Shown piece after piece: positions 22,182 to 57,082 of a stretch of DNA of 64,000 bases (within the stretch, counting starts at the first letter, position 1; the number at the start of each line of letters is the position of its first letter). This DNA is from Escherichia coli (lineage in GTDB: Bacteria > Pseudomonadota > Gammaproteobacteria > Enterobacterales > Enterobacteriaceae). The stretch lies in NCBI RefSeq assembly GCF_011045215.1, contig NZ_CP049201.1; one strand, given 5' to 3'. The position numbers and the translations under genes were made by a program. A model generated the notes under the pieces. That model had not been told where the DNA came from, did no database searches, and saw only the letters and a list, made by a program, of their open reading frames with translations.

Positions 22182-22274
22182 TTCCCCGAACTGAAATAAA
22201 TTAGCGACACAGCTTGTGGCTGGTTTATCATCAATATAAATGTATTTTTTCCCGATTTCCCTTTTGAGGTTGAT

Positions 22275-22700
22275 GTGCAGTTAACGAGTTTCACTGATTA
22301 CGGATTACGTGCGCTGATCTACATGGCGTCATTGCCAGAAGGGCGGATGACCAGTATTTCTGAAGTGACTGACGTCTACGGCGTCTCCCGTAATCATATG
22401 GTCAAAATAATCAATCAACTTAGTCGTGCCGGCTACGTGACTGCTGTTCGTGGAAAAAATGGCGGCATTCGCCTGGGTAAACCGGCGAGTGCGATACGTA
22501 TTGGTGATGTGGTGCGCGAGCTGGAGCCCTTATCGCTGGTGAATTGCAGCAGTGAGTTTTGCCACATTACACCTGCCTGTAGGTTGAAACAGGCACTTTC
22601 TAAGGCCGTGCAAAGTTTTCTTACGGAACTGGATAACTACACGCTTGCCGATTTGGTTGAAGAGAATCAACCGCTTTATAAATTATTGCTGGTGGAGTGA
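22275..22700 (+). CDS. nsrR: Nitric-oxide-sensing transcriptional repressor NsrR (Rrf2 family)
   Basis: 141-aa ORF from a GTG start; N-terminal HTH and C-terminal Cys ligands ([12 protein letters not shown]) for the Fe-S cluster. Confidence 0.93.
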
Positions 22701-49151: not shown

Positions 49152-49814
49152 TCACTCACCCGCCAGCGCGCGTGGGAACAGTACATTGTTTTCCAGGCTG
49201 ATGTGATCCATCAGGTCATCAATCAGTTCATTAATGCCGTTATACATCGCTTTCCAGGTGGTGCAGGCTTCCGGCGGCGGTGTGACGTTATTGGTAGTGT
49301 GTTTGATCACTTCCAGCAGTTCACCCGCTTCATCGTGCTCGCTTTCCATTACGCTGATTGGCCCCATTGCCTGGCTGCCCATGCCTTGTTTGATCATCGG
49401 GAAGAGGATCTGCTCTTCTTTCATCATGTGGCTGGAAAGCTCTTCATGCAGCATAGTCAGGTATTTTGTCAGCCCTTTTGGCACGCTCGGTTTGTCGGCG
49501 TGAACGCGCTCGACTTTAGTCGCTTGCAGGATCAGCTCCGGCAACTGCTCGCGGTGACGATCGTGGTAGCGCACGATGATATGGTCAATGATTTCTGCCA
49601 GCGGGGCGCTACGCCAGTCTTTCTCAATCGGTTGTTCAGCAAGCTTTGCCAGCTCAGCTTCAATGACCTCAACATTCAGCTCCTTACGTGCCGCTGCGCG
49701 CGCCAGCGTCTGCTTACCGCCACAGCAGTAATCCATATCATATTTACGAAACAGAGCTGAAGCGCGAGGAATAGAGAGCGCCAGTTCACCTAAAGGTTGG
49801 TCGCGATAAGCCAT
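49152..49814 (-). CDS. ytfE: Iron-sulfur cluster repair di-iron protein YtfE (RIC)
   Basis: 220-aa [36 protein letters not shown]... (ScdA_N plus hemerythrin-like domain). Confidence 0.95.
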
Positions 49815-49840
49815 AGCTGATACCTCATTCTTAATAAGAT

Positions 49841-49863
49841 AAGATGTATTTTAAATGCATCTT
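49841..49863. promoter_or_regulatory. NsrR operator in the ytfE promoter
   Basis: AAGATGTATTTTAAATGCATCTT: 23-bp near-perfect palindrome matching the NsrR consensus, 27 nt upstream of the ytfE start codon. Confidence 0.85.
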
Positions 49864-49921
49864 TAAGGCAAAAGCTATAACCCTTACGTAGCAGAGGCTT
49901 ATTTAACTCACTGCCAGCGTG

Positions 49922-50887
49922 TCAACTTTCTGAGACAGATTCAGTTAAAGGTTTTTCTGGTTTTGCTCTGACCGCGATGACCACGCCAATCACTAACAGC
50001 GCGATACCGCTCAGCGTCATTAGCGGCGGCATTTGCTGGCGGAGTAAAAAGGTGTACAGCAAACCTGCCAGCGTTTCGAAAACAATCAGCGGCCCGAGAA
50101 TCACTGTCGGTAATCGCTGGCTGGCGACGTTCCAGCAGAGTGCGCCAACCCATGAGCAAAGCACGGCTATCGCAATCATCAGACTAATAAACACCAGCGG
50201 ACGGGGGCCAAAGGGTAGGGAGAAGTCCGGCGTTTGCGTATTCAGCCAGTAACAAGCGACGAGATAGCCGATAAGTGAAACCGGCAGTGTGACCAGCGCC
50301 TGCGCTGTTGCCCACATCATCGGATGTTTGTCGGGATTTTCCCGCAGCCAGCGGGCGTTGCGCAGGGCATACCACGCCCAGCAGACCACGGAAACTAACG
50401 CCAGCACGATGCCAGAGGTATAACGTGCCCAGTCAAAATTGGGGAGTCCGTGGTTTAACTCAGCAATATTCACACACGCCAGGCCGATGCCAATACAAAT
50501 CAGTGCCGGGGCGAGTTTTCCCCACGCGAGTTTGCCGTCGCGCTGGCTATAAAGCAGATTGGCGAAGACGGGAATCACCACCGGCAGGGTGCCGATAATC
50601 ATCGTGGAAACAGGCGCACCAGTACGTTGAATGGCACTGGCAAGGCAGAAGTAATAGATGAGGTTGCCCATCATAGTGAGCATCAAGGCGGTAAGCCAGT
50701 CGCGACGCGCCAACTGACGCAGACGCACGCGTCCCAGCCAGGCAATGGGCAGCGCAATTAACCCTAACGCCAGATAACGCCCCATCGACTGCAACATCGC
50801 CGGGTATTCCGGCACGATCAACGGCCCGACAAAAATAAGCCCCCACATCAACCCTGCTAACAGGGCGTACAGCACGCCGCTAATCAT
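49922..50887 (-). CDS. ytfF: EamA/DMT-family inner-membrane transporter YtfF
   Basis: ORF 49922..50896 (324 aa); I have used the ATG at 50887 (321 aa, MISGVLYALLAGLMWGLIF...), but the start is uncertain by 3 codons. Confidence 0.85.
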   Translation of the reverse strand: MISGVLYALLAGLMWGLIFVGPLIVPEYPAMLQSMGRYLALGLIALPIAWLGRVRLRQLARRDWLTALMLTMMGNLIYYFCLASAIQRTGAPVSTMIIGTLPVVIPVFANLLYSQRDGKLAWGKLAPALICIGIGLACVNIAELNHGLPNFDWARYTSGIVLALVSVVCWAWYALRNARWLRENPDKHPMMWATAQALVTLPVSLIGYLVACYWLNTQTPDFSLPFGPRPLVFISLMIAIAVLCSWVGALCWNVASQRLPTVILGPLIVFETLAGLLYTFLLRQQMPPLMTLSGIALLVIGVVIAVRAKPEKPLTESVSES

Positions 50888-54385: not shown

Positions 54386-54574
54386 CAGGGACATCCTTTT
54401 ATCATCGGGAATACGAAAGAAAAGGGAGAATAAACGTCTTACTTATAGAACAGTGAAGAATGCCACAATTTTACGCTTTGAAAATGATGACACTATCACA
54501 GTTGGCGCATTCATTAACGATAGGGTATAAGTAAAACAATAAGTTAACACCGCTCACAGAGACGAGGTGGAGAA

Positions 54575-55315
54575 ATGTTAGATCAAGTATGCCAGCTTGC
54601 ACGGAATGCAGGCGATGCCATTATGCAGGTCTACGACGGGACGAAACCGATGGACGTCGTCAGCAAAGCGGACAATTCTCCGGTAACGGCAGCGGATATT
54701 GCCGCACACACCGTTATCATGGACGGTTTACGTACGCTGACACCGGATATTCCGGTCCTTTCTGAAGAAGATCCTCCTGGTTGGGAAGTCCGTCAGCACT
54801 GGCAGCGTTACTGGCTGGTAGACCCGCTGGATGGTACTAAAGAGTTTATTAAACGTAATGGCGAATTCACCGTTAACATTGCACTCATTGACCATGGCAA
54901 ACCGATTTTAGGTGTGGTGTATGCGCCGGTAATGAACGTAATGTACAGCGCGGCAGAAGGCAAAGCGTGGAAAGAAGAGTGCGGTGTGCGCAAGCAGATT
55001 CAGGTCCGCGATGCGCGCCCGCCGCTGGTGGTTATCAGCCGTTCCCATGCAGATGCGGAGCTGAAAGAGTATCTGCAACAGCTTGGCGAACATCAGACCA
55101 CATCCATCGGCTCTTCGCTGAAATTCTGCCTAGTGGCGGAAGGACAGGCGCAGCTGTACCCGCGCTTCGGACCAACGAATATTTGGGACACCGCCGCTGG
55201 ACATGCTGTGGCTGCAGCTGCCGGAGCGCACGTTCACGACTGGCAGGGTAAACCGCTGGATTACACTCCGCGCGAGTCGTTCCTGAATCCGGGGTTCAGA
55301 GTGTCTATTTACTAA
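54575..55315 (+). CDS. cysQ: 3'(2'),5'-bisphosphate nucleotidase CysQ
   Basis: 246-aa ORF with inositol-monophosphatase-family motifs ([12 protein letters not shown]). Confidence 0.95.
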
Positions 55316-55526
55316 ATTCAGATGGCAGAAACAGTGTATTTCCTGATTCTGCCATCCTGATTTATCCCAACCTAATAAGTTATAAATAAAAAGAGATTGT
55401 ATTTAAAGTGCAAAAATTCAATTGCTAATAAGTTACATTTTAATAATGAGCGTTTTTTGATAGTTTACTTCTATAATGAGATATTTAATGGCGACATAAA
55501 ATAACGAAATAAAATAAGGTAGCCAT

Positions 55527-56465
55527 ATGTTACCCAGGATCAGACACAATAATTTTATTGGTGCGGTGGAGTTATTTGTAAAATCATCGCATACAAAAAC
55601 ACATTTAAACAATTTTTTAAATAATATTCAGCATGCATTTAAGAAAAAAGATTGGATTTCGAATTATGATTGCCTGTTAACTTTGCGGGAGTTCTTTCGT
55701 TGCGCAACTCAGATTGATAAAGATAGTTATCAAGTGCTTTCATCAAAAAATGGAACTGTTAACGCTATGGATAAGTTTCTTATCAGTTTCAGCCTTAAAG
55801 ATAACGGTGCCGAATATACAATGACATTGCGAGGCAGTGGATTTGAATACGAAGAAATCCCCATAACAATAAATGAGTATAACTCATTCATGGATTTCAA
55901 AAACCGTGAATTTCCGTTAGAACAAAACAGACGATTGTATGCCTGGGATATTCTGCAGAAAAAACAGTCTGACATACCGAAAAGGATTAAAGGTTATATT
56001 CACCAGGCGATTGGTGACGTGTCTTTAGGTTATGCCTTATTGGAGGATATAGTAAGCAAATTAAAACGGGGTAAATTTGAACTCCAAATACCAGCAGGTG
56101 GAATTAAAGAATGCGATGGATGGTATATTTACGAAAAAATAATTGATGATAATTTTGCCATAGTCATAGAATCTTTGGGCTTTGCGCTTAAAATCTATGG
56201 AGGGGATGAACGTTTTCGTAATGGTTCCTCTGTTGTTTTGGAGGATGAAGATTACTCTCTTATTTATAATTTTCTGGTTAATGCAGGTTGCCAACAAGTC
56301 GGATTAGCCGAACAAGTGGATGCGATAGTAAGTGCGAATCTGGCCGCAGATAGTGATATTACCAAAGAAAAGATTTGCGAGAAATATAAATCGACCATTG
56401 AGGCGTTTAAAAAAGAGCAACTAGCGTTACCAGTATTAGTTCGGTGTAAGAACTCAGAGACTTAA
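55527..56465 (+). CDS. ytfI: Uncharacterised protein YtfI
   Basis: 312-aa ORF in strongly AT-rich DNA; recognised as YtfI; no known domain. Confidence 0.8.
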   Translation: MLPRIRHNNFIGAVELFVKSSHTKTHLNNFLNNIQHAFKKKDWISNYDCLLTLREFFRCATQIDKDSYQVLSSKNGTVNAMDKFLISFSLKDNGAEYTMTLRGSGFEYEEIPITINEYNSFMDFKNREFPLEQNRRLYAWDILQKKQSDIPKRIKGYIHQAIGDVSLGYALLEDIVSKLKRGKFELQIPAGGIKECDGWYIYEKIIDDNFAIVIESLGFALKIYGGDERFRNGSSVVLEDEDYSLIYNFLVNAGCQQVGLAEQVDAIVSANLAADSDITKEKICEKYKSTIEAFKKEQLALPVLVRCKNSET

Positions 56466-56527
56466 TTCCCCTATCCCATAGATAACGATAGGGGAAAATT
56501 ATTTTTGCAGAATTTATGTTATTGCCA

Positions 56528-57082
56528 TTATTTGAGCAACTTTTGCAGCAGGTCCATCACTTGCTGCACCTCTTCCTGAGTGAGCGCCCCGTCTTTGGCC
56601 CATTGCACGCGACCGTCTTTATCCAGCACCACTACAGCGGAACTTTCTTCATCCAGCTGCCAGGCACCGCGCGCGACGCCATTGCTATCGACAATAAACT
56701 GCGACCAGGGATAAAGCTTTTTATTACTCTCCAGACTGCTGCGCACAAACATCCCTGAACCCGGAATCGCGTCGTCGGTGTTAACAATGGTGGTGGTCTG
56801 GTAACGATCGTGCGGTAACTTCGCTGATTTAATCGCTTCAATCAGCGTCGCGTTTTTCTCTTTTGCAGAGGTGCGACCAGCAATATGTTGCAGTACTCGC
56901 ACTTTTCCCACTAACTGCGCGCTGTTCCAGGTTTTGTAGCTAAACTGATCTTTATCAAGCACCAACTCGCCCCGATCGGTAATGCCAATCGGCGGCACTC
57001 GCTGACCGGTTTCGAACTGATGTGCGGAAGCCATCATCGGCAGCAGCAGGCAGGTGAGTGCCAGAATCTTGCGTAGGGTCAT
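56528..57082 (-). CDS. ytfJ: Periplasmic protein YtfJ (thioredoxin-like, DUF1107)
   Basis: 184-aa ORF with signal peptide MTLRKILALTCLLLPMMASA. Confidence 0.88.
   Translation of the reverse strand: MTLRKILALTCLLLPMMASAHQFETGQRVPPIGITDRGELVLDKDQFSYKTWNSAQLVGKVRVLQHIAGRTSAKEKNATLIEAIKSAKLPHDRYQTTTIVNTDDAIPGSGMFVRSSLESNKKLYPWSQFIVDSNGVARGAWQLDEESSAVVVLDKDGRVQWAKDGALTQEEVQQVMDLLQKLLK

Follow-up and report, generated by a model that had tools for sequence, protein, structure and literature searches.

The stretch of Escherichia coli DNA analysed here (64,000 nucleotides of contig NZ_CP049201.1, RefSeq assembly GCF_011045215.1; referred to below as the window, with positions counted from its first letter) includes the genes ytfE and ytfF, which are encoded on the same strand with ytfF as the upstream gene, and the gene nsrR. 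The DNA between ytfF and ytfE contains a palindrome of 23 nucleotides, AAGATGTATTTTAAATGCATCTT as read from the window and AAGATGCATTTAAAATACATCTT on the ytfE sense (minus) strand, which begins 58 nt after the ytfF stop codon and ends 26 nt before the ytfE ATG. A Shine-Dalgarno sequence, GAGG, is present at 49823-49826. The coordinates of the features are collected in Table 1.

Table 1. Positions of the genes and of the proposed control elements in the window.
Feature	Position	Strand	Remarks
ytfE	49152..49814	minus	NF008221, 415.3 bits (cut-off 254)
nsrR	22275..22700	plus	NF008240, 292.8 bits (cut-off 182)
Predicted NsrR operator, 11-1-11 inverted repeat	49841..49863	.	half-sites 49841-49851 and 49853-49863
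Candidate -10 hexamer TAAAAT	49848..49853	minus	at the operator centre, placed by comparison
Putative NarL/NarP-like 7-2-7 box, degenerate, TGCTACGTAAGGGTTA	49878..49893	minus	14 nt 5' of the operator

The product of ytfE, 220 amino acids long, is a full-length match above the curated cut-offs of the YtfE model (Table 1) and of the RIC equivalog TIGR03652 (268.2 bits, cut-off 204.7), and the RefSeq label of the homologous DNA is ytfE. By these profile matches it is identified as a di-iron protein for the repair of iron centres (RIC). The product of nsrR, 141 amino acids from a GTG start, matches the NsrR equivalog model over its full length and above the cut-off, and does so better than the IscR, RirA or CymR models, the scores for RirA (102.7, cut-off 193) and IscR (55.6, cut-off 207.55) both being sub-threshold. 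Residues 1-129 could be aligned with the Streptomyces coelicolor NsrR structure 5N07 (E = 1.5e-19), Asp8 and Cys91, Cys96 and Cys102 standing opposite Asp8 and Cys93, Cys99 and Cys105 of that protein, which are reported to be the [4Fe-4S] ligands in its published structure. The protein sequence identifies the regulator encoded in the window as an intact NsrR, a trans-acting NO-sensing repressor of the Rrf2 family. Both genes had been named correctly in an earlier sequence-only reading of this DNA, which pointed to ytfE beside the palindrome and to nsrR in the same window, although the presence of the two in one window is incidental. The same reading had put nsrR 27 kb upstream of its target. 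The distance is right, 27,141 bp separating the nsrR stop codon from the operator, but the two genes lie on opposite strands and "upstream" means a lower window coordinate and nothing more; since the repressor acts in trans, the spacing has no shown functional meaning.

A repeat search returned the palindrome as two arms of 11 nt with a spacer of 1 nt and 91% complementarity, ten of the 11 pairs of this 11-1-11 inverted repeat being complementary. The sole asymmetric pair, T at 49847 and G at 49857, coincides with the Y/R position at which the published consensus is degenerate, so that the operator shows no mismatch to AAGATGYATTTNAAATRCATCTT. The near-perfect symmetry and the agreement with the NsrR consensus that had been claimed for this 23-mer were borne out, down to the letters given. 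A search for AAGATGYATTTNAAATRCATCTT that tolerated up to three mismatches found a single occurrence in the 64-kb window and none in 100 dinucleotide shuffles of it.

The match to an NsrR weight matrix, on which the sequence-only reading had made its claim depend, was examined with the 27 NsrR sites of the 11-1-11 type published for E. coli CFT073 (Table 4 of PMC5320621). The ytfE site and one duplicate were dropped, and the 25 sites that were left were symmetrised and converted to log-odds. With this ytfE-free matrix the operator scored 30.7 bits, which is above all 25 training sites (12.0-26.7 bits), and the claim held. The runner-up position reached 12.3 bits, below the mean maximum of 13.7 bits obtained from 200 first-order Markov simulations of the 64-kb window, whose highest value was 21.3 bits; no further full NsrR site was found in the window. 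With a matrix for the 11-bp half-site, the two arms of the operator ranked first and second in the window (15.6 and 14.8 bits, out of a possible 15.6), and two extra half-sites of at least 13.5 bits were found, at 22238-22248 and 55430-55440, compared with 1.6 +/- 1.2 expected by chance.

A half-site-like sequence, AAAATACATTT, is present upstream of nsrR (22237-22248, minus strand, 13.6 bits), 27-38 nt before the GTG start, in intergenic DNA that is the same as in K-12. No evidence for the autoregulation of nsrR was found in the window, where the count of half-sites equals the chance expectation; that this half-site may reflect a weak autoregulation is a weaker, additional reading. NsrR-like half-sites, AGATTGTATTT and AAGTTACATTT (14.3 bits), are found 25 nt apart in the cysQ-ytfI intergenic region (55394-55440), the very AT-rich spacer of which has one NsrR-like half-site at 55430-55440, and these are probably chance matches. 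A query of 54400-56600, which holds ytfI, was covered over at least 80% of its length in just 1,610 of 5,426 E. coli genomes, and part of this region is for that reason variable among E. coli.

The comparison of the 901 bp around ytfE with K-12 DH5alpha gave 99.2% identity, and because of this value the strain of the window is recognized by its sequence as an E. coli other than K-12. The interval 49790-49940, which spans the ytfE-ytfF intergenic DNA, is 100% identical in the two strains, including the 23-mer and its distance of 26 nt from the ATG. The ytfE NsrR operator of K-12 is represented in the window by identical DNA with the same neighbours, cycA, ytfE, ytfF and qorB, and no difference is found at the operator, whereas the strain differs elsewhere, both within the 901 bp and in NsrR, which is identical to the DH5alpha protein (WP_001177644.1) in 140 of 141 residues. 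The lone difference is Pro70 in the window (codon 22482-22484) and Ser70 in DH5alpha. Of 5,426 complete E. coli genomes, 5,416 matched the 901-bp ytfE query, where the genes are annotated cycA / ytfE / ytfF; the nsrR query matched 5,425 E. coli genomes, in which the genes are annotated purA / nsrR / rnr. The 49-mer surrounding the operator is present in exact form in 1,997 E. coli genomes and, with one or two base differences, in 3,178 more; in the four variant strains that were sampled all the differences are situated outside the 23-mer. The CFT073 chromosome, which was read directly, has the ytfE site in the same position and with identical flanks. There it is a perfect palindrome (...AAAATGCATCTT), from which the window and K-12 differ by one base, the G of CFT073 at sense-strand position 17 being replaced by A; the consensus has its degenerate R at this position.

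The CFT073 site, published as AAGATGCATTTAAAATGCATCTT, has the best PatSer score in that genome and is its top-ranked 11-1-11 site, it coincides with an NsrR ChIP-seq peak obtained with tagged NsrR, and ytfE is up 69.6-fold in nitrate-grown anaerobic cultures of this strain (Mehta et al. 2015, PMC5320621). In K-12, ytfE was bound in the ChIP-chip study of Partridge et al. 2009, to the extent that this is cited in PMC5320621. The ytfE mRNA is up 544-fold in a Salmonella nsrR mutant (PMC2884951), and in EHEC the ytfE promoter serves as an NsrR-dependent NO reporter (PMC7336997). The site had been predicted by Rodionov et al. 2005 from the consensus gATGyAT-N5-ATrCATc, and Spiro's mutational evidence for it was cited by these authors as a communication (PMC1274295). 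The ytfE operator at 49841-49863 is already known and is a textbook feature.

The scan of other species made use of the exact 19-nt core GATGYATTTNAAATRCATC, which was searched in about 100,000 species' genomes, one genome per species, and yielded at least 120 loci, for each of which the first ORF on each side was classified. The core motif itself served to select the loci, so the counts express an association with ytfE and do not tell how large a share of ytfE genes carries the site. A YtfE orthologue is found beside the core at no fewer than 35 loci, with 37-99% amino acid identity and a start 26-30 nt from the core; among the matches listed, the genera include Escherichia, Citrobacter, Enterobacter, Klebsiella, Kluyvera and Atlantibacter as well as Serratia, Shimwellia, Mangrovibacter, Shewanella and others. 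The flavohaemoglobin Hmp adjoins the core at 32 loci or more, six of these with a divergent nsrR, an NsrR homologue at 23 or more, 14 of which are paired with a truncated globin, a truncated globin at 17 or more (Legionella, Methylobacter and relatives), and TehB at four or more. At least 29 loci have no recognisable NO-related neighbour, among which are six copies, from Clostridia, of a single repeated element. The AA..TT flanks, which were left unspecified in the search pattern, accompany the core at 81 of the 120 loci and at 34 of the 35 ytfE loci among the matches listed, and are absent from all six Clostridia copies among them. Because these flanks were found although the pattern did not contain them, the 23-bp motif is independently recovered; across phyla it accompanies nsrR and genes of NO detoxification.

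The Clostridia copies (Oscillibacter, Lachnospiraceae and others) have the core as TTGATGCATTTGAAATACATCGC and adjoin a repeated ORF of 125 amino acids for which no NCBIfam match was found; they appear to belong to a mobile or repeated element that has nothing to do with NsrR. At twelve loci and others from Legionella, Coxiellaceae and methanotrophs, the identical 23-mer stands between a divergent nsrR homologue and a truncated-globin-like ORF of 123 amino acids, which gave no match to NCBIfam, and a clear TTGAC -35 element is present upstream. The gene arrangement suggests that they would be autoregulated nsrR-globin divergons.

The ytfE site shares the 11-1-11 motif over or beside the promoter with the other NsrR operators (hmp, hcp, ygbA, yeaR, tehA and their orthologues) and with the autoregulated nsrR-hmp and nsrR-globin divergons of other bacteria. 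It differs from the former in its symmetry, most of the other operators being less symmetric (12-27 bits for the training sites versus 30.7 bits at ytfE). The divergons differ in their arrangement, since the nsrR of E. coli does not adjoin its targets and has in its own upstream region a half-site of chance level alone.

These comparisons bear on the reading of the palindrome as a chance inverted repeat of AT-rich intergenic DNA with no regulatory role. The region is in fact AT-rich, and the lone NsrR-like half-sites elsewhere in the window do occur at chance level. Against this, no shuffle contained the pattern at three or fewer mismatches, the highest simulated score stayed at 21.3 bits when the operator had 30.7, the sampled E. 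coli strains differ in the flanks but share the same 23-mer, its distance to ytfE is fixed across many genera among the matches listed, and binding has been detected by ChIP-seq (PMC5320621). The probability of a chance repeat is considered practically nil.

Hardly more can be said for a role at the RNA level, as a terminator hairpin of ytfF or a hairpin in the ytfE mRNA leader, which is invited by the location of the repeat 58 nt past the ytfF stop codon and on the strand of both genes. The predicted RNA fold of 49825-49880 (minus strand) has a minimum free energy of -5.1 kcal/mol (z-score 0.01), and the arms are unpaired in the corresponding structure. A loop of 1 nt cannot form, the stem would have four G:C pairs only, no T-run follows it, and the terminator scan of 49600-50100 was empty. 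The same motif is moreover found upstream of unrelated genes that have no preceding gene.

The possibility that the site is bound mainly by another regulator, such as FNR or IscR, arises from the hmp promoter, where the NsrR and FNR sites overlap, and from the weak scores of NsrR with the IscR and RirA models, all these being Rrf2 proteins. The arms, AAGATG...CATCTT, are unlike the FNR consensus TTGAT-N4-ATCAA, and the ytfE site is not known to resemble the type 1 or the type 2 motif of IscR. The motif adjoins an nsrR homologue at 23 or more loci, the ChIP-seq was done with tagged NsrR (PMC5320621) and ytfE is strongly derepressed in nsrR mutants (PMC2884951), which makes a main role of another regulator very improbable.

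The site is composed of 11-bp half-sites of the AAGATGYATTT type, inverted with 1 bp between them; its position, 26 nt before the ytfE ATG, falls within the promoter region of an NO-stress regulon gene; the same genome encodes an intact cognate NsrR with its DNA-binding domain and cluster ligands; and the site is kept upstream of orthologous genes in related species, as seen at loci chosen by the core motif. With a confidence close to certainty, 49841-49863 is assigned from these sequence features as the operator through which NsrR controls ytfE in E. coli. The view of the sequence-only reading that a regulator and its target could be recognized from the sequence was justified, a true regulator-operator pair having been recovered with all checks in agreement.

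The location of the ytfE promoter was approached by comparison because a consensus scan of 49600-50100 found no canonical sigma-70 promoter. The palindrome had been described earlier as covering this promoter, which that reading did not prove; with no canonical promoter in the scan, the overlap derives from comparison only. Read in the ytfE sense, the central base of the palindrome (49852) is A in all 36 ytfE upstream regions among the matches listed. At the hmp loci among them the same base is T in 19, A in nine, C in three and G in one, and at the globin loci C in eight, A in five, T in three and G in one. As the base varies at the hmp and globin loci, NsrR appears to leave it free, and something at ytfE would constrain it. 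The fixed A keeps the hexamer TAAAAT, which suggests that a -10 element is embedded in the operator, an argument that is weakened by the shared ancestry of the Enterobacterales sequences. Hexamers resembling a -35 element precede TAAAAT at a suitable spacing in the outgroups: Mangrovibacter has TGGACA 18 nt away, Shewanella TTGCCC 16 nt away. The -35 region paired with TAAAAT in the window, AGCTTT, is very poor. With this -10 element we infer that transcription of ytfE would start at about 49840-49841, giving a leader of 26-27 nt.

Other -10-like hexamers are TATAGC, upstream of the operator, and TATCTT, at its 3' edge. If one of these (TATAGC at 49874-49879, minus strand, or TATCTT) were the true -10, NsrR would act as a roadblock or downstream repressor instead of occluding a central -10 element. 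The lack of a canonical promoter in the consensus scan is compatible with this arrangement, and TATATT directly 3' of the operator is kept in many genera, as is the block AAAGGGkTATAkC. On the other side, TATAGC, TATATC and TATTCC all lack the last T that is critical in a -10 hexamer, nothing is conserved upstream of the AAAGGGkTATAkC block, and the central A, present at all 36 ytfE sites among the matches listed, keeps TAAAAT though NsrR tolerates any base. The abstract of Bodenmiller & Spiro 2006 reportedly places the repeat across the -10 element in the promoters of ytfE, hmp and ygbA. A roadblock is on balance unlikely, although it deserves more weight than a chance repeat, an RNA hairpin or another regulator.

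TATAGC was considered as a -10 element in its own right and was found less likely, since its block is without the final T in all genera. A perfect TTGACA hexamer (49920-49925, minus strand) overlaps the ytfF stop codon and is conserved within Escherichia only. It was rejected as a -35 element, there being no acceptable -10 at 16-18 nt and no conservation outside Escherichia.

With TAAAAT retained as the probable -10 element, the following mechanism is the most likely. The holo-NsrR dimer, a winged-helix protein of the Rrf2 family with an Fe-S cluster, would occupy the 11-1-11 repeat with one subunit on each 11-bp half-site. The probable -10 hexamer lies at the operator centre, and the 3' edge of the operator would coincide with the probable start, 26-27 nt before the ATG; since the operator covers both, bound NsrR would exclude RNA polymerase and ytfE would be off. 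In the NsrR family, nitrosylation of the cluster by NO abolishes DNA binding; ytfE would in this way be derepressed, and YtfE, as a di-iron protein, would then repair damaged iron centres. That the operator overlaps the -10 element, and that the polymerase is sterically occluded, is what we infer.

A second element may be present further upstream. The window contains a degenerate match, with four mismatches in 14 positions, to the 7-2-7 consensus used here for NarL/NarP (TACYYMT-NN-AKRRGTA). In 33 of the 36 ytfE upstream regions among the matches listed, the best 7-2-7 match keeps one register, separated from the operator by 13 nt (28 regions) or by 14 nt (five regions, namely the window and four Escherichia loci). 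The ytfE regions have 1-4 mismatches, compared with a mode of five for the random best of 45, and the conserved block AAAGGGkTAT upstream of the operator (scan loci L006-L117) is the right half of the 7-2-7 sequence. Its centre would lie about 43-45 nt upstream of the proposed ytfE start; in known NarL/NarP-activated promoters the centre of the box is near -44. The box is proposed from these matches as a candidate second control element, which is weak in Escherichia and better conserved in other genera.

The regions beyond this box differ among the genera. In Citrobacter, Enterobacter, Kluyvera and related bacteria (ten loci) a divergent gene for a methyl-accepting chemotaxis protein, and not ytfF, lies beyond the ytfE control region. 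From the replacement of ytfF at the far side it would follow that the conserved control region of ytfE begins at the 7-2-7-like block.

The yeaR-yoaG promoter is reported to combine a NarL site near -43.5 with an NsrR operator (Lin, Bledsoe & Stewart 2007). The architecture of many Enterobacterales ytfE regions is similar, with a NarL/NarP-like 7-2-7 box beside the NsrR operator, whereas the ytfE box of the window differs by its four mismatches in 14 positions and by one extra base of spacing. Rodionov et al. 2005 listed dnrN/ytfE among the enterobacterial genes with candidate NarP sites (PMC1274295). In the literature examined, experimental NarL/NarP action at ytfE was not found, the computational prediction of 2005 standing alone. 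It is tempting to speculate that ytfE had an ancestral promoter with two inputs, an activator of the NarL/NarP type and NsrR over the -10 element, and that the box has decayed in Escherichia, with the half-site before nsrR as the weaker addition to this proposal; we hold this to be a tentative possibility, rather doubtful at present.

The recovery of the ytfE operator is to be regarded as a positive control for the tool-free reading of raw sequence and not as a discovery. Since 2005-2006 NsrR and ytfE have served as a model of repression that responds to NO, and the promoter is already in use as an NO biosensor. Mildly new are the fixed central A, which would mark a -10 element within the operator, and the NarL/NarP-like box, which is good in other Enterobacterales and degenerate in Escherichia. 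If the decay of a second input were true, NsrR would be left as essentially the sole input of ytfE in Escherichia.
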